Below are positions 20,769 to 62,239 of a stretch of 64,000 nucleotides of DNA, piece after piece. Below the pieces are notes generated by a model, which was not told the origin of the DNA, did no database searches, and saw only the letters and a program-made list of their open reading frames with translations. The translations under genes were made by a program, and so were the position numbers. Origin of the DNA: Gammaproteobacteria bacterium (GTDB taxonomy: Bacteria; Pseudomonadota; Gammaproteobacteria; Eutrophobiales; Eutrophobiaceae); contig OZ242265.1 in NCBI GenBank assembly GCA_965207165.1, positions 1,501,593 to 1,565,592 on the forward strand, read 5' to 3'. The number at the start of each line of letters is the position of its first letter. Positions within the stretch are counted from its first letter, which is position 1.

Positions 20769-20850
20769 ATTGATATACGTACACGCTCTTGACCTACGCA
20801 AGAGTATATAATAGTTGTAGAACGTTTGCTATACTAGCAGATGTTATAAG
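20769..20850. promoter_or_regulatory. ~82-bp promoter/operator module, copy 1: IR ctcttgacctacgcaagag + TATATAAT + degenerate palindrome operator
   Basis: ~85% identical to 23493..23575; lies 22 bp upstream of the receptor start. Confidence 0.55.
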
Positions 20851-20933
20851 AAAAAACAGCAGCTGAGCATGAGCATAGCCGAGCATGTTGTCAACAATTA
20901 GAATTGTCCGGTTTAGAGCGTTGTTGATGTGCG

Positions 20934-23441: not shown

Positions 23442-23492
23442 AGAAAACTCCACTTAACTTGGTTAACACATCCGACATCAAAAATTAGTATG

Positions 23493-25788: not shown

Positions 25789-25860
25789 ATATTGTCGCCC
25801 ATCGTGTGGTTGCAGACTTTGTATTAATTCCGGCTTGCAGGTTTCCAACAATAAGTTTAT

Positions 25861-44020: not shown

Positions 44021-44148
44021 ATTATTGCGATAGTTAAGCAATCGTCTGGATAATACCAAACTTATTGCTGTATCAAATACCCAGGGGTACACAAGACGTT
44101 TAACGACAATGCATGGTTAATATATACAAAAGCAAATTGGGGGTTTAC

Positions 44149-46371: not shown

Positions 46372-47241
46372 CTACTCTTCCCGGAGCAAGTCCGAATGTC
46401 CGATTCTTTCCCGGGCAGGGTTGGGTCTCATCATAATGGACATGCCGCCATCTACGATGACCTCCGTACCGGTAACGTAGCTACCGGCGTCACTGGCCAA
46501 TAGCTGGACCTGGCCTTCAACTTCCTCGGGACGACCCAACCGGCCAAGGGCCGAATTACCGGCAAAATCCTTAACAAAAGCCTCGCCGGCGCCCGGGCCA
46601 TCCATTTGATCAAGGAGTTCAACTACGTTGGTTTGCATCATGTCTGTGTGGAAGGCGCCCAGGATCAGGCTGTTCACGGTAATACCATCATGGCCCAGTT
46701 CAGCCGCGGCCATCCGGGTGTAGGCATTAATCGCCCCTTTCGACGCTGCATACATCGACTGGCCGATTGATACAGCTCTGAGGGAAGATTCTGATGAACT
46801 GAAAATAATTCTGCCCCATTGTTTTTTTTTCATATGGGGTAGAAAACGTGTTACCAGGGAGACATTCGCGGCAAAGTTGACCTGCATCAGGTTTGCCATT
46901 ATTTTCTCCTGGTCATCACTGACGCCAAGTCTTGCTTCCTGTCCCGCATTACCGATAAAGATATCAACACCACCGAGTGTATCAATAACATAGTCCACCG
47001 AGTGCTCAATGTCTTCCCTGTCCGACAGATCGATCTTGCGGTAAATTACGGCATTGCCGGAATCCTCAGAAAGTTGTTTTGCCGCATCTTTAAGGACTGT
47101 TTCACGACGGGCGGCTATCATCACACCCGCACCGGATCGGGCCAGGCCCCTGGCCATATAATATCCCAGGCCGGTGGCTCCCCCGGTGACAAAGGCTGTT
47201 TTACCGGTCAGATCAAACTTTTTAAACGCATCGATATTCAC
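46372..47241 (-). CDS. SDR-family oxidoreductase
   Basis: 289 aa; KTAFVTGGATGLGYYMARGLARSGAGV. Confidence 0.75.
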   Translation of the reverse strand: MNIDAFKKFDLTGKTAFVTGGATGLGYYMARGLARSGAGVMIAARRETVLKDAAKQLSEDSGNAVIYRKIDLSDREDIEHSVDYVIDTLGGVDIFIGNAGQEARLGVSDDQEKIMANLMQVNFAANVSLVTRFLPHMKKKQWGRIIFSSSESSLRAVSIGQSMYAASKGAINAYTRMAAAELGHDGITVNSLILGAFHTDMMQTNVVELLDQMDGPGAGEAFVKDFAGNSALGRLGRPEEVEGQVQLLASDAGSYVTGTEVIVDGGMSIMMRPNPARERIGHSDLLREE

Positions 47242-47251
47242 GTTCGATTGA

Positions 47252-48418
47252 TCAGATTGTACGGCTGATTATCAAACGCATTATTTCGGATGTGCCGGCG
47301 AAAATACGGTGCAGGCGAGCCCCTGTATATAAACGGGAGACATTATATTCATCCATATAGCCTGCCCCACCATGGAATTGAACACATTGATCGATAATCC
47401 TGCCTTCCATCTCGCATACCCAGAGTTTCGCCATGGCACAAAGTTCCATGTCCAGCTTGCCATTTGCCCTGTAGTTGCGAATGATTTCGTCAAGGAAGGC
47501 GCGGCCAACAGCTAACTCCGTCTTGATTTCCGCCAGTTTGAACCGGGTATTCTGGAACTCAAAAACAGGTTGACCAAAGCTGTTGCGGTTCTTTACAAAT
47601 TCAACAGTTTCATGAAACGCCCGAGTCGCTGCAGCGTGACCAATGAGGGGCCATGTTATGCGATCCATGTTGACACCGCCGAGCAGAATACCCATACCCT
47701 TGCCTTCAACCCCCATCAAATTACCGGCTGGAACATGAACATTATCAAAAAATATTTCTGCCGTATTACTGGCATGATTACCCATCTTGTGCAGGTCACG
47801 TCCCAATTGAAATCCCCCGCGATCAGCCTCAACAATGATGACCGAGATACCCTGGGCGCCCGCTGCCGGATCGGTTTTACAACCCACCATAAAGAATTTG
47901 GCGTCCTTCGCATTGGAGATATAGGTTTTGGAGCCGTTGATTACCCATTCATCCCCTTTCCGCACAGCCGTGGTCCGCATGGAGGCAACATCGCTACCGG
48001 AAGCGGGTTCTGTGATGGCAAGACCGGCGCGCGCTTCCCCTTTGACCATAGCCGGCAACCATTTCCTGCGTTGTTCTTCGGTACCGTTTCGATAGAGAAT
48101 TTCACTGCAGCCATCGCCAATCAAAGCGGGACCCATGCTGGCCCCGGCCGGGCTGTATCCCAACTCTTCAGCAATCACCATCCGGTACATGAAGTCCCCA
48201 CCAGGTCCACCGTATTCTTCGGGAATATCCACACCTAAAATGCCGACCTCGCCGGCTTTCAACCAGAACTCAGGTTCCGGGCCACCAATTTCTATCCAAC
48301 GGTCAACGTTGGGCTCTACCTCTTCTTCCAGAAAGCGCCGGAATGTCTGGCGGAAAATTTCGTGTTCCTCATCCCAGAGAGCTGGGTTGTGTGGGTAATA
48401 CATTGCTGTTATCTCCAA
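47252..48418 (-). CDS. Acyl-CoA dehydrogenase (paralog of 20934..22106)
   Basis: 388 aa; ACAD domains. Confidence 0.85.
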   Translation of the reverse strand: MEITAMYYPHNPALWDEEHEIFRQTFRRFLEEEVEPNVDRWIEIGGPEPEFWLKAGEVGILGVDIPEEYGGPGGDFMYRMVIAEELGYSPAGASMGPALIGDGCSEILYRNGTEEQRRKWLPAMVKGEARAGLAITEPASGSDVASMRTTAVRKGDEWVINGSKTYISNAKDAKFFMVGCKTDPAAGAQGISVIIVEADRGGFQLGRDLHKMGNHASNTAEIFFDNVHVPAGNLMGVEGKGMGILLGGVNMDRITWPLIGHAAATRAFHETVEFVKNRNSFGQPVFEFQNTRFKLAEIKTELAVGRAFLDEIIRNYRANGKLDMELCAMAKLWVCEMEGRIIDQCVQFHGGAGYMDEYNVSRLYTGARLHRIFAGTSEIMRLIISRTI

Positions 48419-48661: not shown

Positions 48662-49906
48662 TCAGGTACGCGGGTGAAACCTGACGTTCATGCCGTACAG
48701 GCCGCGAAAAACTCCCACAGGCATAAAATCCAGTTTCCTGTCCAGGATTTCCACCGACTCAAACCGGTTCACCAGTGCCGTGAAGAACTCAACCAATTGC
48801 AGCTTGGCCAGCAGATGCCCGATACAATGATGCACGCCAGGGGCAAAAACCTGTGAATTGGAATTGTTCCGGAAAAAATCCAGCTTGTCCGGCTCACTCC
48901 ATTCCCGCGGGTCGAAATTCGCTCCGATAACGGACAGGAACACGATATCGCCTTTTTTCAACTGTTTACCATGCCACTTGAAGTCTTCGCCGACAATTCG
49001 AGGCTGGCCGGATGACATGCCAATGTAGCGCATCAACTCGAGAATACAGTCCTGCATCCTGTCCGGGTGTTCATACATGTATTGCCAGGCCTCCGGGTGC
49101 CGGCTCAGTGCTTCGACACCCATGGTCATGGTATTGCTGGTGGTATCGTGCCCGGCGATAATCACGACATTCATTGTCGCGAGCAGTTCGTCCATGGTAA
49201 GCCTGTCACCTTCTTCCGTCGCCTGCAGCAACGCGGTCAATAAATCATCCTTAGGATCGGTCTTGCGCTTTTCCAGTTCCACCTTGCATACCTCCCCCAT
49301 TTCCACGGTTGCCTTCTCGGTTTTTTCTAGGACCTCAGGCGGCGGCATGGATGAGGTCATGCCTTCGACAACCGCGTTCGCCCATTCCCTCAGTGACGCA
49401 AAATGTTCTTCCGGGATCCCGGCCATTTTAAATATCACATAACCCGGCAGCGGACGGGCAATCTGCTCATTGAATTCGATTTCCGGGGATTCCATTGCCT
49501 TGTCCAAAAGAAAGTTGACACGCTCCCTTACATAGGGCCGCAATTTTTCCACCATTTTTTTGGTAAAGGCCTTCATCACCAGTTTTCTCAAACGCGCATG
49601 TTCTTCGCCATCTACACCGACAATCCAATGATTTACATAATGCGATATAGTCGGTATGCGCAGTTCTCGTTCCTCGACCGGGATGGACGCCAGTGAAAAT
49701 TCATTCCGGCCCGCATTTAACAACGGGACCCGGCATTCAAAGCCATCGCTGACGTCTTCGAACCGGGTGACTATCCAGCAATTGGAGGCTTTACTCCAAT
49801 GGACCGGCTCCATCTCCCGCAACTGGTTAACGTCATTGATAAAATCCAGACCGCCGCGCTGGGGATCGCTCAGCAGGTCGATATCGAAATCCTGTCGTGC
49901 CGTCAT
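48662..49906 (-). CDS. Cytochrome P450 monooxygenase (paralog of 22191..23441)
   Basis: FAPGVHHCIGHLLA heme motif; ATG 49906 with RBS GGAGAG. Confidence 0.85.
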   Translation of the reverse strand: MTARQDFDIDLLSDPQRGGLDFINDVNQLREMEPVHWSKASNCWIVTRFEDVSDGFECRVPLLNAGRNEFSLASIPVEERELRIPTISHYVNHWIVGVDGEEHARLRKLVMKAFTKKMVEKLRPYVRERVNFLLDKAMESPEIEFNEQIARPLPGYVIFKMAGIPEEHFASLREWANAVVEGMTSSMPPPEVLEKTEKATVEMGEVCKVELEKRKTDPKDDLLTALLQATEEGDRLTMDELLATMNVVIIAGHDTTSNTMTMGVEALSRHPEAWQYMYEHPDRMQDCILELMRYIGMSSGQPRIVGEDFKWHGKQLKKGDIVFLSVIGANFDPREWSEPDKLDFFRNNSNSQVFAPGVHHCIGHLLAKLQLVEFFTALVNRFESVEILDRKLDFMPVGVFRGLYGMNVRFHPRT

Positions 49907-50001
49907 AAATGCTCTCCAGAAAAATTGCCTAAACAATCCCCGTAACACCTGGTTTGTTTACCGGATATCACGGGTTTATCATTGTTCGATCAGGTCTGCG
50001 A

Positions 50002-51339
50002 TCAGTTCGTAAAACCGGCAAGATCCGATGCCAGGTCGTTCAATATCTTGGGGAACGAATTAAAGCCAATGGCGGCTATTCGCAGGTCCCGGTCAACACC
50101 GGATGTGTACATGGAATGAGCGCCACCCATTTGAATTGCAAGCATCACCGATCGCCAGATGGTGAAAAATTGCATGCGGATATCTGCTATCTTCCAGCCC
50201 CCATTGCTGCGATAGACCTCCATAAACTCGGACCACGGCATAATGGATTCAATCAGTCCCTTACAATAGCAGAGATCTTCTGCCGGGTCACCGGCGTGGG
50301 CGAACTCCCAGTCAAGAAGACCTGTCACTTGGTCGCCCTCCCCCATCACATTGTGCAACCCGGCATCACCATGCACCAGCTTGCGCTCATTGCCTATGTT
50401 ATTCATTTGCAGGTATAACCAGGCAAAAGCAGTATCGAGTATCGGCGTCGGGGCTACTTTTTCCGTGTAACGCCGGTAGAAACTGTCAACCATGGCCCTG
50501 ACGGGGTGTTGTTCCTCGCCCCAGTTCAAGTTGCCGGCGAGACTGCTGCGTTTTATATCAATTGAGTGTACCCGGGCCAATGTGGCGGCGAAAGCTCTTG
50601 CGATTGCCGGCGGGGCATCGCTCTGAAACAGGGTTCCCATGGCCTGGCCCGGCACCCTGGAAAAGGCGATGAATGCCCCCCCGATGACGGAGGTGTCCGT
50701 TTCAATCCACAGGGGTTCCGGGACCTGGATGCCGGCCTTCCATAATGCCACGATAACGGGGTATTCATAGGTGACGGAAACCCCTGTGACCATATGGGAG
50801 AAGTCGCGCCGAATGACGATGGAACGCGCGCCATTTTGATCCTGTACATCTAGTAACATCGTACCCTTTGACCTCCCGCCGGGTATCACTTTCACGCCGG
50901 AGACTTCGATAACAGGATCGTCCGGGAATTTCTCTTTAAGGTATTTACTGAAGGTTTCGTTCGGAATGTTCAGTTCGTCACCCGAACTGCCTTCGGGCGC
51001 GGTACTGTCGGCGATCTCCACCAGGCGTTGTTCAACAGCATCACGGCGGGTCCGGTCTGCAGCGGCAAACCGAGCGATGGTTGCCGCCAGTTCCGGGATT
51101 CTGCTCCGGTCGATTGATTTATCATAAAGCGCAGCGAGGTCTGCCGTAGATATGCCCTGGGGACAGTTGGCGCCATGTTCTTCCGATGAAACTTCAACCT
51201 CGGCGGCAACACGTACCAGCATCATGTCGATTAATTCTGCCCGGTGCCTGGCCTGCGCTGTAGTCACATTGGTTTTTATGTCTTCACGCAGGGCCGTTAA
51301 CAGGCTTCGTATCAGGTCAACCAGAACGGATGGGTTCAT
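50002..51339 (-). CDS. APH-like phosphotransferase family protein (paralog of 36457..37968)
   Basis: 445 aa; LVHGDAGLHNVM...LLDWEFAHAGDPAEDL. Confidence 0.7.
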   Translation of the reverse strand: MNPSVLVDLIRSLLTALREDIKTNVTTAQARHRAELIDMMLVRVAAEVEVSSEEHGANCPQGISTADLAALYDKSIDRSRIPELAATIARFAAADRTRRDAVEQRLVEIADSTAPEGSSGDELNIPNETFSKYLKEKFPDDPVIEVSGVKVIPGGRSKGTMLLDVQDQNGARSIVIRRDFSHMVTGVSVTYEYPVIVALWKAGIQVPEPLWIETDTSVIGGAFIAFSRVPGQAMGTLFQSDAPPAIARAFAATLARVHSIDIKRSSLAGNLNWGEEQHPVRAMVDSFYRRYTEKVAPTPILDTAFAWLYLQMNNIGNERKLVHGDAGLHNVMGEGDQVTGLLDWEFAHAGDPAEDLCYCKGLIESIMPWSEFMEVYRSNGGWKIADIRMQFFTIWRSVMLAIQMGGAHSMYTSGVDRDLRIAAIGFNSFPKILNDLASDLAGFTN

Positions 51340-51359
51340 ATAAACGATTTACCAGGGCT

Positions 51360-51899
51360 TTACAGAAGAATGGTCAAGGCCCCCATTGTGGCCAGACGAT
51401 ACAGGTCCAGTTCGACACGCTTTTTGACCAGACGCAGTCCGCCAGGTGTCCGGGCCAGCGTGGCCCGGACCAGGGATGGATAGATCACGGTCTCACTACC
51501 TTTACTGCGATAAACCGAAGCATTGAACTGAACTTCAGCCTGGCGCGCATCCTGGTGAATAATTCTTACATGCCCGTACATGTGACGGGTGCGAGACCGG
51601 ACATACTCGGCATGGAAACTGTTCTTCTTCATGCGCACGATGCGCTGTTCCAGACGATAGCGATTGTCCGAAATCAGGAACATGGTACTCGAAGATTCCA
51701 GGGATCCAGGGTCGTCTTCACCCGTCGGCGCCACCTGGTAGCTCAGTTCGCCGCTCTCCGACCAAAGCCCCAACCATTCGTCCAGTGCCCATTGGTCGAG
51801 ATGGTCCGCTTCAAGGTACAGAAAATCCTCTACTTCAGACCGGTTCAATCCACAAATTTGTTGTTGCACGTTCTGTTCACCCCGCTGATGTTCAGGCAT
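51360..51899 (-). CDS. Aromatic ring-hydroxylating dioxygenase beta subunit
   Basis: 179 aa; NTF2-like beta-subunit pattern; overlaps the alpha-subunit stop by 8 bp. Confidence 0.75.
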   Translation of the reverse strand: MPEHQRGEQNVQQQICGLNRSEVEDFLYLEADHLDQWALDEWLGLWSESGELSYQVAPTGEDDPGSLESSSTMFLISDNRYRLEQRIVRMKKNSFHAEYVRSRTRHMYGHVRIIHQDARQAEVQFNASVYRSKGSETVIYPSLVRATLARTPGGLRLVKKRVELDLYRLATMGALTILL

Positions 51900-53178
51900 T
51901 CATCATGCGGTCCCACTCGAGCCAGTAAGCACGCATCTGCAACTCATCGTACAGATCAGCCTCAGCGCCTTCACGGGTAATCTCTTCTGCACTGAAACCT
52001 TTTGAGAAATCATTCCATTCCACGTCCGTCGCCTCATAGGCCCGCTGGCATAATTCCAGCATGGCCACATCATCGGGGGTAGCAAAGCCTCCCGGGCCGA
52101 GGAATGACAACATGTTATCCAGCCGTATCTCTCGCAGGGTGTCCGATTCGTCAATGGGACCCAGTGTCCAGGCCCTCACCATCATCCTGTTATACGCCGT
52201 GGGTACAATCGAACGTACAAGCACTGACTGCTGATCATTGATGACGGAATTGGGAAAGATCACCATGTTGCGGTGGGTATCACAGATGACATTTCCGCGC
52301 TCCTCACCCACGCGTGCGATGACTTCCTCACGTTTGGCCTCTACCTCTTCCCTGACCTTTTCACCCATGCTGGGGATCCATTGCGCCACCGCCCTGCCCG
52401 CCTTGATGGCAATTTCAAAACAGGCATGTCCGTGACCAAATGAACGGGCGGCACCGACAGGCTTCAGCTCCATTCCGGAGCCCTTCATCGTTTCCACCAG
52501 GTACTCTACATAGCTTGCGTGAACAGATGAAAGGTGGTACCCGTCGTAACTGTTCTCGCACAGCAATTTATAGTTGGCATTAATTTCATATTCATGAACA
52601 CCGCTTATGACTTCCATCCCCACTGCGGAGTGTTCACTGATCATTTGCAGGCAGTCGGCTGCTCCACCCAGGAACGACTCCAGTGAGTGCGCATCCGGAT
52701 CGAAATTAACGAAGTAAAAACCCGCATACTGCTGCAGGTTCGGCACGCTCAGCAGTGTAGTACGGCCATCGCAGAAACCGTCGGGAAAGGCCGCGTCGGC
52801 TTCGGGTGAACCGGTGGAAACCAGAACACCATCATCGCGATAGACCCAACCGTGATACGGACAGACAAAGGATTTCCTGTTGCCGCCCCGGTCCCGGCAG
52901 ACCGCCGCTCCGCGATGCCGGCAACTGTTATAAAACGCACGAACCACCCCGTTTCTGTCGCGGTTCAAAACCAGGTCCTTGTCAACCACCGTTCGGGTTA
53001 TAAAATCACCCGGTTTGGCGATTTCCGCTTCGTGGGCCAGTGCGATCCAGCTCTTGCGCAGGACTTTTTTCTGCTCCAATGCAAAGACTTCCGGGTCCCT
53101 GTAGGCGTCGCGGTGAACCAGAAAAGTCTTTTCTGCCGGATTGATATTCAGGAAGCGTGATTTATAGCATTTATCCAT
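51892..53178 (-). CDS. Rieske non-heme-iron ring-hydroxylating dioxygenase alpha subunit
   Basis: 428 aa; Rieske CRHRG...CPYHGW and catalytic His/Asp domain. Confidence 0.85.
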   Translation of the reverse strand: MDKCYKSRFLNINPAEKTFLVHRDAYRDPEVFALEQKKVLRKSWIALAHEAEIAKPGDFITRTVVDKDLVLNRDRNGVVRAFYNSCRHRGAAVCRDRGGNRKSFVCPYHGWVYRDDGVLVSTGSPEADAAFPDGFCDGRTTLLSVPNLQQYAGFYFVNFDPDAHSLESFLGGAADCLQMISEHSAVGMEVISGVHEYEINANYKLLCENSYDGYHLSSVHASYVEYLVETMKGSGMELKPVGAARSFGHGHACFEIAIKAGRAVAQWIPSMGEKVREEVEAKREEVIARVGEERGNVICDTHRNMVIFPNSVINDQQSVLVRSIVPTAYNRMMVRAWTLGPIDESDTLREIRLDNMLSFLGPGGFATPDDVAMLELCQRAYEATDVEWNDFSKGFSAEEITREGAEADLYDELQMRAYWLEWDRMMNA

Positions 53179-53197
53179 ATTATCCTGTCCGATTCAG

Positions 53198-54034
53198 TCA
53201 TGAAAGATGCTCCGCCAGGTACGCCTGCAGTCCACAGGCCGGCCTCCCCAGTATTGCCGTTACGGTTTCGGTCACGTTTTCATAAAGCCCCTCACGCATG
53301 CCGCGCGCCATTTGCAGCATCTGCTCCACGCGATAAGGACGAAGCCCTGCTGAGAGCAACGTATCACGCCATTGTTTTTCTGTTACCTCTTCATAACAGA
53401 CTGTCCCGCCATAAGCAGCGGAGAGCAAACCGGTCGTTTCATCCCAGGAGAGTGACTCAGGCCCTGTCAATGTGAACTCGCCACCCAACAGGTCATCGTC
53501 GCACAAGGCAACTTTCGCAACGCCGGCGATGTCCCGGGTATCAATAAAGCTGAGCCTGCTCCCGCGTCCTGCAGGGAAGGCAATAAGACCGCTCTTGACG
53601 CTTTGACTGAGAAAGCCGCGGGTAAAGTTCTGCATGAACCATCCCGGTCGCAGGATCGTATATTCAAGACCGGATTTGATCAGGTGGTCCTCGGCAGCAC
53701 AGAGGACCCGCCAATCCTTATCGAGACCCATGGCAGTGGAAAACACGATCCTTTCTGCGCCGGCAGCGGCAGCCGCATCAATAAAAGGCAAAAGCGTCTC
53801 GTCCGGACAGGGATCGCCTGCCTTGGGAATCATGAAGATGCGCGTAACACCGGACAGGGCCGTAATCCAGCTGGTTGGATCATCGTAGTCAAAAACGACC
53901 TTATCCAGCGCGCCCTGTACATGGATTCCTTGTACGTTTCTTGACGCCGCACAAACATGCCGACCTTCCCCACTTAACTGCTCGGCGAGGCTTGAGCCGA
54001 TATTGCCGGTTGCCCCGATGACAAGAAATTTCAT
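53198..54034 (-). CDS. NmrA-like/atypical SDR NAD(P)H-binding protein
   Basis: 278 aa; MKFLVIGATGNIGSSLAEQL. Confidence 0.65.
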   Translation of the reverse strand: MKFLVIGATGNIGSSLAEQLSGEGRHVCAASRNVQGIHVQGALDKVVFDYDDPTSWITALSGVTRIFMIPKAGDPCPDETLLPFIDAAAAAGAERIVFSTAMGLDKDWRVLCAAEDHLIKSGLEYTILRPGWFMQNFTRGFLSQSVKSGLIAFPAGRGSRLSFIDTRDIAGVAKVALCDDDLLGGEFTLTGPESLSWDETTGLLSAAYGGTVCYEEVTEKQWRDTLLSAGLRPYRVEQMLQMARGMREGLYENVTETVTAILGRPACGLQAYLAEHLS

Positions 54035-54046
54035 TCCGGACCAGGA

Positions 54047-57000
54047 TCAGGCCGCCGAGGCCATAATCCGCTGCGGATACTTATCCCATTCCTTCAGTTT
54101 ATTACGCAATTGGGCGTCGTAGTGACGGATATTATCCTCCTTGATGTGGCCATAACCCTTTATCATTTCCGGTAGCGCGGCAATTTCTCCTGCCAGCGCG
54201 TAGTTGTCTTTGTTCAATGTCTCAATGATACGCTCAATATGCCTGCGGTACTCAACGACAAGCGCTCTTTCGCGTTGCCGTTCCTTGCTGTACCCGAAGA
54301 TATCGAAAGCCGTTCCCCGCAGCCGCTTTAGCTTTGCAAGAACACCGAATAGCGTGAACATCCATGGGCCAAACTCAATCTTCCCGGGCTGACCCGTGCG
54401 CTTGCTCCTGAATGATAGCAGGGGTGGCGCCAGATTGAATTTCAGCTTGTAGTTACCTTCAAACTGCTGCTTCAACCTGCGTTCGAAATCACCTGATGTA
54501 TACAGACGGGCAACCTCGTACTCATCCTTGTAGGCCATAAGTTTATAGAGATAGCGGCCCACGGATTCTGCCAGTTCCGTACTGTCACCGCCCAGGGCAT
54601 CTTCCGCAGCCCGCACCTTGTCAATGAGTTGTTTGTACTCACCGGCGTAGCCTGCTCCCTGATAGTCCGTCAGGTCACTGATACGCCGCTCGATCAATTC
54701 GTCCACAGATTCGGGTAACTGCAGTTCACCATCATCCAGAGATGATTCTGCTATATAACGCTCCACCGCCTCCGGATCATGGGCAGCCATTCTACCCCAC
54801 GCAAGGGTATGCAGATTGGTTGTAACGGCCACGCCATTGAGTTCAATTGCTGTCTCTACCGATTCTACGGTGAGGGGAACCAGTCCTTTTTGCAAGGCGA
54901 AACCCAGCATAAATACGTTGGTGGCAATGCTGTCGCCCGTCAGCCTGGTTGCCAGGGTGGTTGCCGCAACATCTGACAGGCTATCATCACCGACCAGTTG
55001 CCGTAGCACGGCCAGCATGGAATCCTTGCCGAAATCGATATTCATGTTGCGCTGGAACTGGGCGGTAGGAACAACATCATTATTAACAAGAATACTGGCG
55101 GACTCGGAACGTACCAGGTCGGTTACCTGGGCGCCGGATGTCACCACCAGGTCACAACCGATAACCAGGTCGGCTGCCCCGCTCCACAATCTTGGGGCAT
55201 TGATACTCTTTGTGTCGGGCGCAATACGTATGTGGCTCAATACCGCACCGCCTTTCTGGGCCATGCCGGTAATATCAAGAACGCTGCAGGCTTTTTCTTC
55301 CACGTGGGCTGCCATACCGAGAATTGCCCCGACAGTGAGTACTCCCGTACCGCCAATCCCGGTAATCAGGATGTTATAGGCGCCATCTCCTGACACGGTT
55401 TCCGGTGTAGGCAAGCCGGCAAAGATCTGTTCCTGTTCCGTGCGGGCTTGCTCTGCCTTGCGTAGCTGTCCTCCTTCCACGGTCACAAAGGAGGGGCAGA
55501 ACCCGTACTGGCAACTGTAATCCTTGTTACAACTGGATTGATCAATTCGACGCTTGCGGCCGTACTCGGTATCCACCGGCTGGATGCTTATACAATTGGA
55601 CTGCGTAGAACAGTCGCCGCAACCTTCACAGACATCCTGGTTGATATACAGCCGCTTGTCCGGATCGGGGAAAAGGCCGCGTTTGCGGCGGCGACGTTTC
55701 TCAGCCGCACAGGTCTGGTCATAGATAATGGCCGAAACACCTTTCTGTTTTTGCATCTCCCGCTGAACAGATTCCAGTTCATCACGGTGATAGACCCTGG
55801 TCTGGGGCGGCCAGTGCACGGATGCAGGGTATTTTTCGGGCTCATCGGTGACAACGGCAATCGGTTTGACCCCTTCCCAATAGATCTGGTTGGCCATCAT
55901 CTCCACCGTAAGCTCACCATCGATTGGCTGCCCTCCGGTCATGGCAACAGCATCGTTATACAATAGCTTGTAAGTGATATTTGCTCCGGCGGCCAGGGCT
56001 GAACGTATGGCCAGGAGGCCGGAATGAAAATAAGTCCCGTCCCCCAGATTCTGGAAGGAGTGTTCCAGATCCATAAAGTGGTGCAAACCTACCCAAAGTG
56101 AGCCTTCCGCTCCCATTTGCGCCGCGTATTCCGTTTCACGGTCAGGCATCACCAGGGGCACGATGCCATAACAACCCACACCCGTGAACGTCAGACTGCC
56201 ATCAATGGTTTTGGTGGATGTGTTGTGGGGGCACCCCGAACAGAAGTAGGCGGTGCGAAAAGCATTGACCGGAGGCAATTGTGCAACCTTGCTGCGACGA
56301 TTTTCAATTTCAGCCACCTTGGCATGCATTTGTGGATAGTTGATATCCAGTACCTTTAACCGGCGTACCAGTACGTCAACCATGAGGTTAACATTGGTTT
56401 CGCCGAACTCAGGGACCAGGGTGTTACCTTCATTATCCTTTTTACCGGTGATAACAGGACGCTGCGCCTGGGGTAATGCATAAAGCAGGCGCGTTAACTG
56501 ATCTTCAATAATCGGGTTTTTGTCTTCCACCACCATTATTTCATCGTGATCGAGACAAAACTCCCTGATGCCTTGCGGCTCCAAGGGCCATGTGACGGCC
56601 AATTTGTAGATGCGGATACCCAGGTCAGAAGCCATGGCCGTATCGATGCCCAGCTCATGTAATGCTTCCATCAGGTCAAGATAGGGCTTGCCGGCTGTGA
56701 CAATGCCTAACTTGCGCTTGGCGCTATCCTGCACCACCTTGTTCAAGCCATTGGCGTGGACAAATGCATCGACAAGGGGCAGCTTGAATTGAACCAGCCG
56801 GCGTTCCTGAACGAGGGGCATGAAGTCGTTGTGAACGGCATTGACACCTTCAGGCGGGAAGGTGCATCCTTCCGGTGTGATAATTTCCAGTTTTTCCGAA
56901 TCGGCCTCGGCAGTGGAAGTCAACTCAATTGTATCGGTCACGCCCTTAAGAGCTACCCAGAGCCCTGAAAACCTTGAAAGCGCCCAGCCGTACAGGCCGT

Positions 57001-57550
57001 ATTCAATATACTCCTGTGTGGAGGAAGGATAAAAAATCGGCACATAGGCGCCCACCAGCATGGGGTCCGATGAGGCAGAGGTAATCGATGACTTGGCGCC
57101 GATATCATCCCCCGTAAAAATCAGGGCACCGCCATACCTGGAAGTACCGGTAGTGAAGTTACCCGCTTTGATGGCCTCTATCGCCCGTTCTGTACCCAGC
57201 ATTTTTCCGTACCACAGGGAAAAAACACCATCGTATTTTTTCTTGTCCGGATAAAAATCCAGCCACTGGGAACCCTTGATGGCTGACGCAGCCAGTTCTT
57301 CGTTCACTGCGGGCATAAACCTGATGTGATGTTCCTCCAACAGATCGCCTGCAGACCACAATGCCGTATCATAAGTCCCGATGGGTGATCCCCGATAACC
57401 GCTGATAAAGCCTGCCGTATTCAACCCCGCGGCAACGTCACGCCGCCGTTGAATCATGGGCAAACGCGTCATGGCCTGCAGAGTGTTGAGGTAAATCCGT
57501 CCTTGAGTTCGGGTATATTTGTCGTTCAGTTGAACAGCTGTTTTAGTCAT
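54047..57550 (-). CDS. Indolepyruvate ferredoxin oxidoreductase-family (fused IorA/IorB) 2-oxoacid:ferredoxin oxidoreductase
   Basis: 1167 aa; TPP-binding and PFOR domains; 4Fe-4S CEGCGDCSTQSNC. Confidence 0.75.
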   Translation of the reverse strand: MTKTAVQLNDKYTRTQGRIYLNTLQAMTRLPMIQRRRDVAAGLNTAGFISGYRGSPIGTYDTALWSAGDLLEEHHIRFMPAVNEELAASAIKGSQWLDFYPDKKKYDGVFSLWYGKMLGTERAIEAIKAGNFTTGTSRYGGALIFTGDDIGAKSSITSASSDPMLVGAYVPIFYPSSTQEYIEYGLYGWALSRFSGLWVALKGVTDTIELTSTAEADSEKLEIITPEGCTFPPEGVNAVHNDFMPLVQERRLVQFKLPLVDAFVHANGLNKVVQDSAKRKLGIVTAGKPYLDLMEALHELGIDTAMASDLGIRIYKLAVTWPLEPQGIREFCLDHDEIMVVEDKNPIIEDQLTRLLYALPQAQRPVITGKKDNEGNTLVPEFGETNVNLMVDVLVRRLKVLDINYPQMHAKVAEIENRRSKVAQLPPVNAFRTAYFCSGCPHNTSTKTIDGSLTFTGVGCYGIVPLVMPDRETEYAAQMGAEGSLWVGLHHFMDLEHSFQNLGDGTYFHSGLLAIRSALAAGANITYKLLYNDAVAMTGGQPIDGELTVEMMANQIYWEGVKPIAVVTDEPEKYPASVHWPPQTRVYHRDELESVQREMQKQKGVSAIIYDQTCAAEKRRRRKRGLFPDPDKRLYINQDVCEGCGDCSTQSNCISIQPVDTEYGRKRRIDQSSCNKDYSCQYGFCPSFVTVEGGQLRKAEQARTEQEQIFAGLPTPETVSGDGAYNILITGIGGTGVLTVGAILGMAAHVEEKACSVLDITGMAQKGGAVLSHIRIAPDTKSINAPRLWSGAADLVIGCDLVVTSGAQVTDLVRSESASILVNNDVVPTAQFQRNMNIDFGKDSMLAVLRQLVGDDSLSDVAATTLATRLTGDSIATNVFMLGFALQKGLVPLTVESVETAIELNGVAVTTNLHTLAWGRMAAHDPEAVERYIAESSLDDGELQLPESVDELIERRISDLTDYQGAGYAGEYKQLIDKVRAAEDALGGDSTELAESVGRYLYKLMAYKDEYEVARLYTSGDFERRLKQQFEGNYKLKFNLAPPLLSFRSKRTGQPGKIEFGPWMFTLFGVLAKLKRLRGTAFDIFGYSKERQRERALVVEYRRHIERIIETLNKDNYALAGEIAALPEMIKGYGHIKEDNIRHYDAQLRNKLKEWDKYPQRIMASAA

Positions 57551-57597
57551 TGGTTGTTGTCATTGGTTTTTACTCGGTGGATATTCCGGTTACTGGC

Positions 57598-57960
57598 TCA
57601 CTTGACAGTAATGTAAACTTCGCCATCTATTACTGTGACGGGATACACCTTGATTGGCTCCGTACAGGGTAAGGCAACAGGTTCGCCAGTGCGGATATCG
57701 AACTTGCCATCATGCCATGTGCACTCGATAATGTGTCCTTCCAGGTAACCCTCATCACCCAGTGATGCCTTGCCATGAGTGCAAAAATCATCGCTGACAT
57801 AAATCTCATCTCCCTGGACACGGTAAACCGCGAGGGCAGACAGGTCTTCACCTTCTACTTCAACCTGTAAAGTATCTTCTTCATCGACGTCCTCAACTGC
57901 GCACACGCGCACGAGGCGCGTTTTTGCAGCGGATGTCGTTTTCATGTCGTCGTCAGTCAT
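57598..57960 (-). CDS. Rieske [2Fe-2S] ferredoxin component
   Basis: ~120 aa; CTHGKASL...CTWHDGKF Rieske motifs; start ambiguous (57960/57978). Confidence 0.75.
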   Translation of the reverse strand: MTDDDMKTTSAAKTRLVRVCAVEDVDEEDTLQVEVEGEDLSALAVYRVQGDEIYVSDDFCTHGKASLGDEGYLEGHIIECTWHDGKFDIRTGEPVALPCTEPIKVYPVTVIDGEVYITVK

Positions 57961-57989
57961 CAGGTTGCCCTCTCTCACGCATTTCCTGT

Positions 57990-58982
57990 TTACAGTGACA
58001 GGAGTTGCTTTGCATTTTCATGAGTGACCAGCGCACTTTCACTCGCTGACAGGCCAGCCCGGGACAGGAACCCGGGAAGATCTTTCTGCCCAATCTCGGT
58101 AGGTCCGTCGGTCCCTGCAACAAAACGACCTGCTCCCAGCCGGCGTACCAGGTAACCCAGATAGTCGGAACTGAATGTCACCGTGTCATAGTAAAACCGT
58201 TTGGCATAGTCCAGGGGTCTGATGTCTCCGTTTACTTTCATCACGTCGAACTTGTTCCAGACCATATCGAAACGATCCAGGACCGCGCCGATACCACCGC
58301 CTCCGTGGCTGAAAACAAGCTTCAGGCGCGGAAAGCTCCCTAAAATATCAGTCATGATAAAAGAGCCAATTAACGCTGTTGTCTCATGGGGCACACCCAG
58401 CACCGGTCCCATAAGCGGAGAACCCAGCAGCCTGTCCAGAGATCCCGGTTTGATCCCATGGATAAACAGGACAAGACCAAGATCTTCCGCTGTTTCAAAA
58501 ACGGGATAGAAACGCTCATCGGCCAGTGAGCAACCATTGATATGGCTGCCCAGGTGAACGCCCTTCAGACCGTGCTCGGAATGAAGACGTTCCAGTTGTC
58601 CAACCGCTTGCTGAGGATCCTGCATCGCAATGCAGCCAAGCCCCTGGAAACGGTCCGGCGCCTTTCGCACCATGTTTCCCACGAATTCATTCATAAAGTC
58701 CGTAAGGACTACGGCAGCGTCAGCATCCAGCCAGTAGGAAAGCAACTCAGGCAGGGGCGATAACAACTCCATGTCAATGCCATTATTTCCCATTTGCTCA
58801 ATGCGTGCGTCCACATCCCAGTAAAAACTCTCGAACTTTCGATATTCCTTGCCATTAATAATCATGCTGGACAGGCTTTCATTAACAGGCGCCATCTCAG
58901 GCCAGGCCGGCTCACTCACACCACCGGGCCGGGCAGGATAACTGTCCGGTACAATGTGTGCGTGAAAATCGATGATGGTCAT
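57990..58982 (-). CDS. Amidohydrolase-2-family metal-dependent hydrolase/decarboxylase
   Basis: 330 aa; N-terminal IDFHAHIVP. Confidence 0.7.
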   Translation of the reverse strand: MTIIDFHAHIVPDSYPARPGGVSEPAWPEMAPVNESLSSMIINGKEYRKFESFYWDVDARIEQMGNNGIDMELLSPLPELLSYWLDADAAVVLTDFMNEFVGNMVRKAPDRFQGLGCIAMQDPQQAVGQLERLHSEHGLKGVHLGSHINGCSLADERFYPVFETAEDLGLVLFIHGIKPGSLDRLLGSPLMGPVLGVPHETTALIGSFIMTDILGSFPRLKLVFSHGGGGIGAVLDRFDMVWNKFDVMKVNGDIRPLDYAKRFYYDTVTFSSDYLGYLVRRLGAGRFVAGTDGPTEIGQKDLPGFLSRAGLSASESALVTHENAKQLLSL

Positions 58983-59023
58983 GCCTGGCTTCCCCTGTCC
59001 GATGAATTGACTAAGCCTTTAAT

Positions 59024-59039
59024 ATAGCGCATGCTATAC
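59024..59039. promoter_or_regulatory. Palindrome operator site (tatagcgcatgctata; 14/16)
   Basis: Divergent intergenic region 58983..59080. Confidence 0.5.
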
Positions 59040-59080
59040 AAGTTACGCAAGCCATAAAATCGGAATGTCATTATCCGACA

Positions 59081-60268
59081 ATGAGTAAAGTCTTGAATAA
59101 CGTACGAGTGATAGATATCACCAGGTACGTGGCGGGTCCTATTTGCACAGCCCAGTTGGCTGATCTCGGCGCTGAAGTGATTCACATCGAAAATGTGGGT
59201 GGCAGTGAAGACCGCACCCCATTGCCATTTGATCCGGATTATCCCGCCGGTGTTGGCTTCGTACAGTGTAATCGCAATAAAAAAAGCCTTGGTCTCGATC
59301 TCGCCTGCCAGGAAGGAAGGGATATACTTTACAGGCTTGTGGAGAATGCCGACATCCTGGTGGCAAATATGCCCGGCAAAGCAATGGCCCGTCTGGGAAT
59401 TGACTACGACACAATTCAAGGCATCAAGCCGGATATTATCTTTACCCACGTGACTACCTTCGGTAATGAAGGACCATACGCCGACCGTACGGGATTTGAT
59501 GCCATCGCCCAGGTCATGTCCGGCGCTACCTATCTTTCCGGCTGGCCGGAAGAACCTATGAAGAATGCGGCTGCCTGGGTTGACATGACAACAGGAAACC
59601 ATGCAGTGACGGGCATTCTTGCTGCGCTTCTTCACCGGCAGAAAACAGGAAACGGACAAAAAGTTGAAGTCAATCTGCTGCAATCGGCCATGTCCATCAT
59701 CAATTACTTCCTGATCGAGGAAGAGCTCACCGGTATGGGCCGGACCGGAATAGGAAACCGCGCGCCATCAGGCGCCCCCTGTGACCTGATCAAAACCCGG
59801 GACGGCGCTTTTTATATTGCCATCCTCGGGCAGCCTATGTTCAAACGCTTCAGTAAAATGATCGGTCAACCTGAACTGTCCGAAGAACCCCGGTTCGCCA
59901 CGGATGAACTGCGGGCAGACAATGGTGTTGAACTCAGCGGGCTGGCCGCCGGCTGGGCGGCAGATAAATCGACTGACGAGTGTCTGGACATACTGGCTGA
60001 GTTTCGAATTCCGGCAGGGCCGATGTTGAGTCCGCGCCAGGCCCTGGACGACCCCCATGTTCAATCAGCCGGATTCCTGCACAAGGTAAATGTGCCGGGC
60101 ATTAAAAAACCCGTGCCTTATATCATGCCGCCTTACCGACTCAGCGACGCACCTGCAACCATTGAAAACGGACCGCCGCTTCCGGGCGAGCATACAGACG
60201 AAATACTGGCAGAGCTGGGATACTCGGGCGAAGAAATCGCCGGCTTACGGGACCGGGCTGTCGTTTAG
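59081..60268 (+). CDS. Family III CoA-transferase (CaiB/BaiF), fourth copy
   Basis: 395 aa; VRVIDITRYVAGPICTAQLADLGAEVIHIE. Confidence 0.8.
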   Translation: MSKVLNNVRVIDITRYVAGPICTAQLADLGAEVIHIENVGGSEDRTPLPFDPDYPAGVGFVQCNRNKKSLGLDLACQEGRDILYRLVENADILVANMPGKAMARLGIDYDTIQGIKPDIIFTHVTTFGNEGPYADRTGFDAIAQVMSGATYLSGWPEEPMKNAAAWVDMTTGNHAVTGILAALLHRQKTGNGQKVEVNLLQSAMSIINYFLIEEELTGMGRTGIGNRAPSGAPCDLIKTRDGAFYIAILGQPMFKRFSKMIGQPELSEEPRFATDELRADNGVELSGLAAGWAADKSTDECLDILAEFRIPAGPMLSPRQALDDPHVQSAGFLHKVNVPGIKKPVPYIMPPYRLSDAPATIENGPPLPGEHTDEILAELGYSGEEIAGLRDRAVV

Positions 60269-60392: not shown

Positions 60393-60893
60393 CTAGATGA
60401 TAATTGTCATCTGCCCCGCATCGTTGAGGCTGTTAAGGTCCAGGGCAATGCGTTTACTCTTGATCCTGATGTCGGTCCCCTCCCGCACCAGCACATAACG
60501 CATCTCACCCATAAAATTCGTGGTTTTATCGTTGCCGGTGCGGTATACCACGACATTCGCCCGGACCCTGGTTTCATTACCCCGGGTACCGGCAATTCGA
60601 ACATTGGTGTACAGGTGTCGCGTTTTGGAGTGTGGATACTCACAGTGTGCGGCGCGCTTCATCAGGCGAACAGCCCTTGCGTCAATCCGGCTTTTCTTAT
60701 CGGCAAGCACGAACAGCGACCTGGCTGGATCGGCATTAAAAGGATCTTCACAGTCAGTTGATGCGACTTCATAACTGCTGTCATCTGTATATAGCTCTTT
60801 CCACTCCAGCAAACGCCAGTCATCCAGAAGCTCAGCTTCGTAGTAAAGGAAGTCTTCTGCTTCCTGGCGTGTAATCATATGATTCTGCGACAT
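60393..60893 (-). CDS. Ring-hydroxylating dioxygenase beta subunit (second system)
   Basis: 166 aa; paralog of 51360..51899. Confidence 0.75.
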   Translation of the reverse strand: MSQNHMITRQEAEDFLYYEAELLDDWRLLEWKELYTDDSSYEVASTDCEDPFNADPARSLFVLADKKSRIDARAVRLMKRAAHCEYPHSKTRHLYTNVRIAGTRGNETRVRANVVVYRTGNDKTTNFMGEMRYVLVREGTDIRIKSKRIALDLNSLNDAGQMTIII

Positions 60894-60910
60894 AATTTAC
60901 TCCTGATGGC

Positions 60911-62239
60911 TTATATCTGCTGTTCCAGGCTCACAGCGCCGCGCATCAGCATGTCCCATTGTGTCCAGTATCCCTGCATATGGGTCTCGTCGTCCGTCAT
61001 GCCGGATGCAACACGCAGGTCGTCGACACCCTGCATACCCTTGGATAATTCGGTCCACTCTGTCGGGCAGGCAGTTATGGATTTCTGGGCGCTGTTCAAC
61101 ATTGAACCATCGTCCGGGGACCCAAACCCGGAAGGGCCCAGGAAGGACACAAAATTGTCCAGCCGAATTTCCTTCAATTCATCGGATTCTTCCTTTGGCG
61201 CTAGGCACCAGGCATTGACTTTCATGGCTGTAGGCGAAACCGGCTCGATAACCCGTATGGTCAGGGCTAATATGTCGTTGATAACGAGATTGGGAAATAT
61301 CACCGAGTTTTTTTGCATATCGCAAATGTAGTCGGCCCTTTCCTGACCAAGCTGATCGGTCAACCGTTGCCTGTTGGCGCCGATCTCCTTCTTTATGTCC
61401 GGGCCCCATTCCTCGATCCAGTAACCGACGGGACGTCCGGTCGGCACATTAGATGACAACAGGAAATGTCCGTTGCCCATAGCATACGCCCCGCCCTTCT
61501 CCTGGAAGTTGGCCATCTTTGCGAAGACCCCGGATTCCTTGGTGCCGCTGTACTTATCGGCAAGAAACTCAAGATAGGTCTGGTGTACGGGACCAAGGTG
61601 ATAACCGTCCGCGCTGTTTTCTATCAGGAATTTGTAATTTGCATTGATCGAATAGGCGTGCTCACCCGGCAATATGATCATTTCTTCCGCCGACTGGGCA
61701 TTTATCGAGTCCAGCAAGTCTCTGACCTGTTCACCAAGGAAATCGTAGAGCGATATGGCATTGTCGTTAAAGTTTACGAAGTTGAGGCCACCGTATTCCT
61801 CTACTCGCACACGGGGCAGGTCCAGGTGCCCATCTGCGTTGATATCTTCCGGATAGCCTGTCTCGGTATTCATCGATTTCAGCTTTCCTTCCGTATCGTA
61901 TACCCACCCGTGATATCGACAGGAGTGTACCTTACTATTACCTTTTCTATCCCAGCAGACAGCCGCGCCACGATGGGTACAGGTGTTGTAGAAGGCCACC
62001 AGTTCCCCCTTCCGGCTGTGCTGGAATATCAGGTTTCGTCCCATGACCGTGCGGGTCAGGAAATCGCCCTTATTGGGAATTTCGGAGCGGTGCCCCAGAT
62101 ACAACCAGCATTTGTCGAATATCAGCGCCTTCTCCATTTCAAACACTTCCTGGCTGTAATATGCTTCCCTGTTGATACGGAAGGTCCTGCAGTCTTTGTC
62201 AACCTCTATCAGCGATTCTTGAATGGCTTTGGTATTCAC
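60911..62239 (-). CDS. Rieske ring-hydroxylating dioxygenase alpha subunit (second system)
   Basis: 442 aa; CTHRG...CRYHGW. Confidence 0.85.
   Translation of the reverse strand: MNTKAIQESLIEVDKDCRTFRINREAYYSQEVFEMEKALIFDKCWLYLGHRSEIPNKGDFLTRTVMGRNLIFQHSRKGELVAFYNTCTHRGAAVCWDRKGNSKVHSCRYHGWVYDTEGKLKSMNTETGYPEDINADGHLDLPRVRVEEYGGLNFVNFNDNAISLYDFLGEQVRDLLDSINAQSAEEMIILPGEHAYSINANYKFLIENSADGYHLGPVHQTYLEFLADKYSGTKESGVFAKMANFQEKGGAYAMGNGHFLLSSNVPTGRPVGYWIEEWGPDIKKEIGANRQRLTDQLGQERADYICDMQKNSVIFPNLVINDILALTIRVIEPVSPTAMKVNAWCLAPKEESDELKEIRLDNFVSFLGPSGFGSPDDGSMLNSAQKSITACPTEWTELSKGMQGVDDLRVASGMTDDETHMQGYWTQWDMLMRGAVSLEQQI

Follow-up and report, generated by a model that had tools for sequence, protein, structure and literature searches.

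The closest described counterpart of the enzyme considered here is EdcC, also called OAOR (KC8_05315, EGO55_13580), an IOR-family (indolepyruvate:ferredoxin oxidoreductase) enzyme that belongs to the aerobic 4,5-seco pathway of oestrogen degradation in sphingomonads (PMC7793797). Deletion of edcC in N. tardaugens abolishes growth on oestradiol and leads to a build-up of pyridinestrone acid, in which ammonium has added to the cleavage product (PMC7793797); in strain KC8 the CoA-ester product has been detected (reviewed in PMC7264893). Neither a Rieske ferredoxin nor a reductase is encoded in the edc cluster, and indeed no ferredoxin at all (PMC7793797); edcC itself has been proposed as a specific biomarker of oestrogen degradation (PMC12507874). 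Plasmid p3 of Novosphingobium sp. ES2-1 carries a complete edc-type cluster (L167), with genes for an extradiol dioxygenase, an IOR, an acyl-CoA dehydrogenase (ACAD), MaoC hydratases and a P450; its IOR served as the EdcC orthologue in our comparisons. Here we describe a fused IOR-family enzyme encoded among Rieske oxygenase genes in a stretch of 64,000 nucleotides of contig OZ242265.1 from a Gammaproteobacteria bacterium, hereafter called the window. Our preferred reading, to which we assign a probability of roughly 60%, is by analogy with the oestrogen pathway: a classical reductase-ferredoxin-oxygenase chain would be combined with an EdcC-like IOR step on the ring-fission product.

The IOR gene lies in the central part of a catabolic cluster that spans about 29 kb (approximately 35.4-64 kb of the window, extending beyond the window end). 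The genes on which the argument turns are listed below, with their positions in the window.

62263-63189, minus strand: type I extradiol (meta-cleavage) dioxygenase, 308 aa (Pfam Glyoxalase, two stretches)
60911-62239, minus strand: primary Rieske oxygenase alpha subunit, 442 aa (Pfam Rieske and Ring_hydroxyl_A)
60393-60893, minus strand: primary Rieske oxygenase beta subunit, 166 aa (Pfam Ring_hydroxyl_B; top NCBIfam match HcaF)
59081-60268, plus strand: family III CoA-transferase, divergently oriented, 395 aa (Pfam CoA_transf_3, 2.7e-107)
57990-58982, minus strand: Amidohydro_2 protein, ACMSD-like metal-dependent decarboxylase, 330 aa (Pfam; alignment with PDB 4igm)
57598-57978, minus strand: Rieske-type [2Fe-2S] ferredoxin, 126 aa, whose true start may lie a few codons inward (Pfam Rieske)
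54047-57550, minus strand: fused IOR-family 2-oxoacid:ferredoxin oxidoreductase, 1167 aa (PRK13030; Pfam POR and DUF6537)
53198-54034, minus strand: NmrA-like NAD(P)-binding atypical short-chain dehydrogenase/reductase (SDR), 278 aa (Pfam NAD_binding_10, NmrA)
51892-53178, minus strand: second Rieske oxygenase alpha subunit, accessory, 428 aa (Pfam Rieske and Ring_hydroxyl_A)
51360-51899, minus strand: second oxygenase beta subunit, 179 aa (Pfam Ring_hydroxyl_B)
50002-51339, minus strand: APH-family kinase-like protein, 445 aa (Pfam APH, 7.5e-26)
38012-39244, minus strand: GR-type ferredoxin-NAD(P)+ reductase, 410 aa (Pfam Pyr_redox_2 and Reductase_C)

An initial annotation of positions 50002-58982 had described the seven minus-strand genes from the amidohydrolase to the APH-like gene; their order and strand are as it claimed, and the family matches are strong. 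The spacings, given there as 8-48 bp, are indeed close (gaps of 11-47 bp), but one junction is an overlap: from the amidohydrolase to the APH-like gene, the open reading frame (ORF) coordinates give 11, 47, 12 and 19 bp, an 8-bp overlap and 20 bp. The borders of that annotation leave out better-conserved partners of the IOR, namely the primary alpha/beta pair, the extradiol dioxygenase and the CoA-transferase. A promoter and terminator scan of 46-64 kb was uninformative on operon limits, with sites no commoner than in shuffled sequences.

In the pathway that we propose, electrons would flow from NAD(P)H through the GR-type reductase (38012-39244) and the Rieske ferredoxin (57598-57978) to the two oxygenases (60393-62239 and 51360-53178). 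One or both Rieske oxygenases would dihydroxylate a carboxylated aromatic, with rearomatisation next, and the extradiol dioxygenase (62263-63189) would open the ring. The ACMSD-like enzyme (57990-58982) would then strip a ring-derived carboxyl group from the fission product, and the IOR (54047-57550) would oxidatively decarboxylate the 2-oxoacid end and attach CoA, so that the acyl-CoA could pass to nearby beta-oxidation-type enzymes (ACADs, hydratases and CoA-transferases). As electron acceptor of the IOR we assume one of the general ferredoxins or flavodoxins of the cell. The substrate of the cluster is probably aromatic, carboxylated and hydrophobic, and the host is presumably aerobic, since the cluster encodes many oxygenases. 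We infer the order of the steps and the substrate of each enzyme, and set them beside the observed gene content, intact motifs, synteny and co-occurrence.

The IOR matches two NCBIfam models over its full length, PRK13030 at 1492.7 bits (cut-off 816) and PRK13029 at 1484.1 bits (cut-off 952), and the IOR_alpha (1.2e-39) and IOR_beta (1.3e-20) models in part. Its thiamine pyrophosphate (TPP) motif, GDG-x(24-27)-N, is intact (GDGTYFHSG...YN at residues 503-532), and 11-12 cysteines are invariant across the family in a set of 24 homologues (437/440/460/614, 641/644/647/653 and 674/680/685). By these features the protein is predicted to be a CoA-dependent 2-oxoacid decarboxylating oxidoreductase. 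In its ferredoxin-like region the first cysteine motif (641/644/647/653) is complete and the second (674/680/685) has three cysteines only, so a [3Fe-4S] cluster, or a fourth ligand of an unusual kind, may be a feature of the family. A further invariant cysteine, Cys799, lies in the POR domain. A search of PDB sequences with the single IOR sequence gave no match, and a profile retrieved the gamma subunit of pyruvate:ferredoxin oxidoreductase alone (4e-4); no solved structure thus appears detectable by sequence for the IOR or for its C-terminal DUF6537 domain, on which a literature search found nothing. Going by PMC7793797 and PMC12507874, no member of the fused family seems to have been purified.

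The gene neighbourhoods of related IORs carry most of the argument. Twelve lineages encode an IOR at least 57% identical to that of the window: the window itself (with L001, of the same species, whose IOR is 99% identical and at the same locus), L002, L172, L163, L164, L174, L171, L165, L168, L166, L003 and L169. They include metagenome-assembled genomes (MAGs) labelled Halieaceae and Aromatoleum, Sphingomonas formosensis, and metagenome contigs; the homologue in a Halieaceae MAG is 68% identical. Their neighbourhoods were obtained by exact-protein look-ups and one genome hit. Of the 12 lineages, 11 have an extradiol dioxygenase gene no more than 10 kb from the IOR and 11 an alpha/beta pair of the 442-aa type near it, and in 10 an ACMSD-like amidohydrolase gene directly precedes the IOR, or the ferredoxin-IOR pair. 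The shared core is therefore the Rieske alpha/beta pair (60393-62239 type), the extradiol dioxygenase, the ACMSD-like amidohydrolase and the IOR. Four lineages (L003, L166, L168 and L169) have these genes in a compact operon in the order alpha, beta, extradiol dioxygenase, in some cases an SDR, amidohydrolase and IOR, and genes for ACADs, enoyl-CoA hydratases (ECHs) or MaoC hydratases flank the IOR. We propose that the IOR acts on the ring-fission product because of its linkage to the extradiol (11/12) and ACMSD-like (10/12) genes and the EdcC precedent (PMC7793797); the same evidence supports what the initial annotation had offered as a fallback, a decarboxylating step within the pathway. Separately, sulfotransferase-family genes flank orthologous clusters in two lineages (L168:2213-3406 and 20267-21430; L174:28-1197), and none is present in the window.

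The operon order also bears on a reading in which the IOR acts before ring attack, converting an arylpyruvate-type side chain into an arylacetyl-CoA-type thioester, with the oxygenases acting on the CoA ester or the acid. This is the canonical role of an IOR, arylpyruvates being oxidised by the enzymes of archaea and anaerobes (cited in PMC7793797). Paralogous fused IORs are encoded beside Lrp/AsnC-like regulators and apparent 4-hydroxyphenylpyruvate dioxygenases, a context suggestive of aromatic amino-acid catabolism, and CoA-transferases and ACADs are abundant in the cluster. We nevertheless judge it very unlikely: the order alpha, beta, extradiol dioxygenase, amidohydrolase, IOR in four lineages puts the IOR after cleavage, no aminotransferase or other source of arylpyruvate is encoded nearby, and the tight linkage to an ACMSD-like gene, for an enzyme of fission products, would be hard to explain.

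Both oxygenase alpha subunits retain the Rieske motif CxH-x17-CxxH and the mononuclear-iron motif E-x3-D-x2-H-x4-H; in the primary alpha (60911-62239) they read CTH...CRYH and ENSADGYHLGPVH. The top NCBIfam match of the primary alpha is the large subunit of benzoate 1,2-dioxygenase (263 bits, below the cut-off), and its orthologues, at 50-80% identity, occur in 11 of the 12 lineages. The 428-aa alpha is 42% identical to the 442-aa alpha, and its orthologues occur at other positions in L164, L165 and L166 and in none of the other lineages. The pair 51360-53178 is an accessory module, and together with the NmrA-like gene it forms an insertion relative to L172/L173; the NmrA-like SDR is a candidate dihydrodiol dehydrogenase for this second oxygenase. 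The extradiol dioxygenase has biphenyl-2,3-diol 1,2-dioxygenase and HpaD as its top NCBIfam matches, both below the cut-off, and PDB 3b59 as a structural relative (1e-24); the ACAD gene that the window end cuts (63243-64000) is present at full length ahead of the extradiol gene in L001, L163 and L172.

The amidohydrolase, for which no NCBIfam model matched, aligns with human ACMSD (PDB 4igm) at 7.7e-44 over residues 4-306, and with the C-C hydrolase LigY (PDB 5vn5) at 1e-11. The alignment with 4igm includes H7, H9, the His of GSHING and the Asp of GTDGP, which we take to be the metal ligands, and the His of SHGGG, presumably the catalytic residue; R48 and the Arg of LDRF, which we assume to bind the substrate carboxylate, are also kept. 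The protein is predicted to be an ACMSD-type decarboxylase, and a LigY-type hydrolase activity is the weaker alternative (1e-11). ACMSD decarboxylates a carboxylated extradiol ring-fission product. DhbB and CmtD, which act as decarboxylases in the meta pathways of 2,3-dihydroxybenzoate and p-cumate, may be further analogues; a literature search for 2-hydroxy-3-carboxymuconate decarboxylase found nothing.

If the amidohydrolase or another enzyme were instead a C-C hydrolase, the IOR could act one step later, on a small 2-oxoacid released by hydrolysis, for example 2-oxopent-4-enoate (the keto form of 2-hydroxypenta-2,4-dienoate), and would replace the branch of hydratase, aldolase and aldehyde dehydrogenase. 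The window is compatible with such a shortcut in that no lower-meta-pathway hydratase, aldolase or acetaldehyde dehydrogenase genes were found in it, that the window (40313-41068), L163 and L171 encode alpha/beta hydrolases, and that the Amidohydro_2 family also includes LigY. The amidohydrolase is, however, far nearer to ACMSD (8e-44) than to LigY (1e-11) and keeps the ACMSD residues, and the alpha/beta hydrolase lies outside the conserved core and matches no meta-cleavage hydrolase model, its sole NCBIfam match at E <= 1e-10 being a weak one to AcoC. Moreover, the many ACAD, ECH and CoA-transferase genes suit a large acyl-CoA better than a C4 unit, and EdcC works on the intact fission product (PMC7793797). 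We consider this reading unlikely, and retain the fission product itself as the proposed substrate of the IOR.

The Rieske ferredoxin has HcaC, MocE and AndAb as its top NCBIfam matches, all below the cut-off, and its PDB relatives are 2i7f (6e-25), CarAc, the NDO ferredoxin and BphF (6e-25 to 1e-21). Its cluster ligands C66/H68/C86/H89 are invariant, and by these resemblances it is a standard Rieske ferredoxin of the dioxygenase type. The initial annotation was right that no reductase gene is adjacent and that the sole GR-type reductase of the window lies at 38012-39244. Its distance from the IOR is 14.8 kb, and some 18 kb separate it from the ferredoxin. Its further claim that a cognate reductase is missing did not hold, because this gene encodes a BphA4/TodA/HcaD-like protein that is a conserved, syntenic member of the cluster. 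The protein carries two GxGxxG motifs, its PDB relatives are BphA4 (1d7y, 5e-76) and TodA (5e-71), and its best NCBIfam score is to HcaD (383.6 bits, cut-off 450), and AndAa is matched as well. Reductases of just these types are the usual partners of such ferredoxins.

We assign the reductase to the cluster because syntenic orthologues, 59-68% identical, lie on the same strand 2.0-7.6 kb downstream of the IOR in L002, L163 and L172/173, and these identities run parallel to those of the IORs (69-71%). The same-strand string in L172/L173 is amidohydrolase, Rieske ferredoxin, IOR, LLM-class oxidoreductase, APH, SDR, ECH, ECH and reductase; L163 has IOR, ECH, ECH and reductase (2.0 kb from the IOR), and L002 has SDR, ECH, ECH and reductase (7.6 kb). 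The conserved cluster end in L173 consists of the reductase, a divergent 503-aa APH gene and a DUF7064 gene, and the same three are found in the window, which is colinear with the L172/L173 string, with the same ends and order, and differs by the insertion of NmrA-alpha-beta, of P450-ACAD-SDR-TonB-dependent receptor and of the hydrolase. In L169/L170, labelled Aromatoleum, an orthologous ferredoxin (55%) directly adjoins a reductase, 7 kb from the IOR. The product of 38012-39244 is predicted to be the cognate reductase of the Rieske ferredoxin. Reductase genes are often unlinked or shared among Rieske oxygenase systems, so the distance of 14.8 kb is not anomalous in itself. It is worth noting that the three P450 genes of the window (15870-17117, 22191-23453 and 48662-49948, all on the minus strand) are accompanied by no P450-type ferredoxin in the 64 kb, and a six-frame motif scan of the window found no second ferredoxin gene for the IOR or for the P450s. 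Since there are three P450s without a ferredoxin of their own and one ferredoxin gene in the window, the single reductase may serve several systems.

The position of the ferredoxin gene, 47 bp from the IOR and, as first annotated, immediately upstream of it, had led to the proposal that a missing reductase is compensated by the IOR, which would supply electrons to the oxygenase through the Rieske ferredoxin. With the reductase conserved in the cluster, the premise fails, and we rejected the version in which the IOR replaces a reductase that is present and syntenic. A check of other genomes for this adjacency gave a divided result: it is conserved in six of the 12 lineages, all in the subclade of 67-100% IOR identity, where the order is amidohydrolase, ferredoxin, IOR with ferredoxin-IOR gaps of 28-51 bp, and it is absent in the other six. 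Three of the latter have a non-adjacent Rieske ferredoxin within 10 kb (between ACADs in L165, beside an ACAD on the other strand in L166, and beside a reductase in L169), and three (L003, L168 and L171) have none within 10 kb.

As a rival reading, oxidation of a 2-oxoacid, perhaps the fission product of the pathway, would reduce the adjacent ferredoxin and so replace or supplement the NAD(P)H reductase; what survives of it is the supplementing form. In its fuller form, the IOR of the adjacency subclade would pass the two electrons from decarboxylation of the fission product to the Rieske ferredoxin, with the NAD(P)H reductase merely priming the system. The conserved order and short gaps in six lineages, the status of this ferredoxin gene as the only one in 64 kb, and L164, which has the ferredoxin-IOR pair and no reductase within 10 kb, all count in its favour. 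Aerobic fused IORs, moreover, are without an established acceptor, and no conserved ferredoxin partner is found near the 159 paralogues listed. Oxidation of 2-oxoacids also has a potential low enough to reduce a Rieske ferredoxin. To our knowledge, however, no Rieske ferredoxin takes electrons from a 2-oxoacid:ferredoxin oxidoreductase (OFOR). Four of the six adjacency lineages keep a BphA4/HcaD-type reductase in the cluster, within the same gene string in L172/173 (in L164 there is none within 10 kb, and in L174 the contig ends). Linkage to the IOR is most consistent for the extradiol and ACMSD-like genes, not for the ferredoxin, and the adjacency is absent in L169, L165, L166, L003, L168 and L171. 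The predicted coupling holds in a single subclade only, whose members share their synteny by descent and are not independent cases. Nor does the ferredoxin have any special conserved feature: we looked for a docking adaptation of the IOR-adjacent ferredoxins and rejected it, since they show no more than an insertion of two residues and, at the N-terminus, 10-14 additional aa that are poorly conserved. Electron donation by the IOR, in general, seems to us improbable, and the fuller form with a priming reductase is a comparably long shot. If it were true, a downstream step would pay for the initial dioxygenation, in the first 2-oxoacid-fed Rieske oxygenase system, and the ferredoxin would be the first identified acceptor of an aerobic fused IOR; the subclade-conserved adjacency is in any case a concrete candidate for the acceptor of oxygen-exposed OFORs.

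Two of these observations also weigh against the classical chain with an IOR step on the fission product, which leaves unexplained why the ferredoxin lies 28-51 bp upstream of the IOR in six lineages and how L164 has the pair with no reductase within 10 kb, and several others do likewise. In L165 the IOR is accompanied by oxygenases, with no extradiol or ACMSD-like gene within 10 kb, and in L171 no oxygenase is found near it. No thiolase was seen in the window. The window IOR is not an orthologue of EdcC (47% identity; neighbour-joining tree), so its proposed role rests on analogy and context rather than on orthology, and EdcC itself appears to have been neither purified nor assigned an electron acceptor.

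The wider fused-IOR family provides a background for these associations. We considered 159 loci at 45-51% identity, among the matches listed from scans of genomes and metagenome contigs, nearly all of which were paralogues in this range. One oxygenase locus (L093) and three weak Rieske-like matches were found among them; the commonest neighbours were an Lrp/AsnC-like regulator, a GNAT-like protein and an apparent 4-hydroxyphenylpyruvate dioxygenase, which we recognised by eye, without a family search, and presume to be such. No conserved redox or ferredoxin partner was found beside these 159 paralogues. In L093 (295-8457, soil metagenome), the IOR falls among the housekeeping paralogues (50% identity), and a divergent block of beta, alpha and reductase genes adjoins the amidohydrolase-IOR pair, so that a Rieske oxygenase cluster may here have recruited a fused IOR independently. 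Paralogous fused IOR genes are abundant, with more than 8000 matches at E <= 1e-50, so similarity alone cannot mark oestrogen degradation, and caution is warranted in using them as oestrogen markers (cf. PMC12507874).

The remaining genes of the cluster are as follows.

63243-64000, minus strand: ACAD, cut by the window end (Pfam)
48662-49948, minus strand: cytochrome P450, 428 aa (Pfam p450)
47252-48418, minus strand: ACAD (Pfam)
46372-47241, minus strand: SDR (Pfam)
44113-46344, plus strand: TonB-dependent receptor, 743 aa (Pfam Plug and TonB_dep_Rec)
42935-43864, minus strand: SDR (Pfam)
42071-42856 and 41229-42041, minus strand: two ECHs (Pfam)
40313-41068, minus strand: alpha/beta hydrolase (Pfam)
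39259-40281, minus strand: LLM-class oxidoreductase (Pfam; TIGR03617)
36457-37968, plus strand: APH-like kinase, at the conserved cluster end (Pfam)
35382-36386, minus strand: DUF7065/DUF7064 protein, at the conserved cluster end (Pfam)

Several of these genes recur in the relatives. A P450 gene is also near the IOR in L164, L166 and L168, and TonB-dependent receptor genes in L002, L164 and L168; in L002, L163 and L172/173 the IOR and reductase genes enclose the ECH-ECH pair, which has an SDR gene ahead of it in L002 and L172/173. The CoA-transferase occupies the same place, on the opposite strand, in L002, L163, L171, L172 and L174. A 234-aa ORF directly upstream of the amidohydrolase (58979-59683, minus strand), without a family match, is probably no gene, since the CoA-transferase on the plus strand overlaps nearly all of it. 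The LLM-class gene, which adjoins the reductase, exceeds the cut-off of the "F420-dependent" model TIGR03617 (334 versus 278 bits); its L172 counterpart (13528-14535) directly follows the IOR, and L164 encodes an F420H2_quin_red protein (18672-19193). Enzymes of F420 type are unexpected for the host, probably a gammaproteobacterium.

The APH-like gene 50002-51339 has a 68% identical orthologue 1.1 kb downstream of the IOR in L172/L173. Together with 36457-37968 it belongs to a family that recurs among ACADs, SDRs and DUF7064/7065 proteins (35382-36386 and 31932-32921), with counterparts at L172:14558-15898, L173:13687-15198 and L171:16721-18112. We take the two genes to resemble the kinase-plus-ACAD logic of ACAD10/11 in 4-hydroxyacyl-CoA catabolism.

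Beyond the cluster, all 64 kb of the window make up a catabolic island for compounds of hydrophobic character, with three P450s, two TonB-dependent receptors and numerous CoA-transferases and ACADs. Positions 10047-14514 (plus strand) encode an RND/MMPL transporter that has a sterol-sensing domain, then a LolA-like protein and an unassigned 418-aa ORF, and there is a gene of the SBF (sodium/bile-acid symporter) family at 24907-25851 (minus strand); the transporter and the SBF gene hint at steroid- or terpenoid-like substrates of the island. At its edge lies an AbiEi antitoxin/AbiEii toxin pair (type IV toxin-antitoxin, 2933-5060) in a low-GC patch (GC 0.456 at 2001-4000). In an ORF at 9-989 (plus strand), a cytochrome b5 domain at the C-terminus is joined to the C-terminal portion of a FAD_binding_3 monooxygenase domain; the ORF begins 8 bases from the window edge, and its real start may fall outside the window.

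The comparison with described systems places the cluster among components of known kinds. With the IorAB enzymes of anaerobes and archaea, the IOR shares the TPP motif, the Fe-S cysteine motifs and a domain of the POR gamma type, but it is a single fused chain with a C-terminal DUF6537 domain and scores far below the equivalog cut-offs of IorA and IorB. The amidohydrolase resembles ACMSD in its Amidohydro_2 fold, its key residues and the location of its gene beside that of an extradiol dioxygenase, as expected for a carboxylated fission product; unlike that of ACMSD, its context contains no tryptophan or nitrobenzoate pathway, and its product is proposed to reach the IOR rather than a semialdehyde dehydrogenase. 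As in BphA1-A4, TodABC1C2, HcaEFCD and AndAa-d, all four components of a Rieske system are present with intact motifs, and the ferredoxin, beta subunits and reductase have their top family matches in the Hca, AndA and Bph systems. The arrangement departs from the classical one in that the genes are scattered, with the ferredoxin beside the IOR and the reductase distant, and in that one ferredoxin/reductase pair apparently serves two terminal oxygenases. The substrate specificity of the Rieske families is not transferable to the window, because all scores fall below the equivalog cut-offs.

In the literature that we searched, no paper joins an IOR with an extradiol dioxygenase and ring-hydroxylating genes, and the combination of a Rieske dioxygenase, an extradiol dioxygenase, an ACMSD-like enzyme and an IOR from outside the EdcC clade appears undescribed. 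IOR-family enzymes acting on meta-cleavage products have so far been known only from oestrogen-degrading sphingomonads. Our results suggest a wider use of the strategy of decarboxylating the fission product and activating it with CoA, here downstream of Rieske dioxygenases and in company with an ACMSD-like decarboxylase. It would offer another way than the hydrolase route of the textbooks.

The likeness to the edc system itself lies in architecture and in proposed function. Both IORs have the same fused architecture of about 1150-1170 aa, that of the window being 47% identical over 1143 aa to the ES2-1 orthologue, and both are proposed to carry out the oxidative decarboxylation and CoA thioesterification of a meta-cleavage product; both clusters also encode an extradiol dioxygenase, an ACAD, hydratases, a P450, a TonB-dependent receptor and a TetR regulator. 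EdcC nevertheless falls outside the window clade in the neighbour-joining tree, its 47% identity being no closer than that of the housekeeping paralogues (45-51%). We rejected the identification of the cluster as an oestrogen (edc) cluster on this value and on those of the extradiol dioxygenase (27% to EdcB, a partial alignment over 126 aa) and the P450 (21% to the EdcA orthologue). Finally, the window cluster would activate the ring by Rieske dioxygenases and not by a P450 only, it has an ACMSD-like decarboxylase inserted ahead of the IOR step, and it encodes, unlike the edc cluster, both a Rieske ferredoxin and its reductase.

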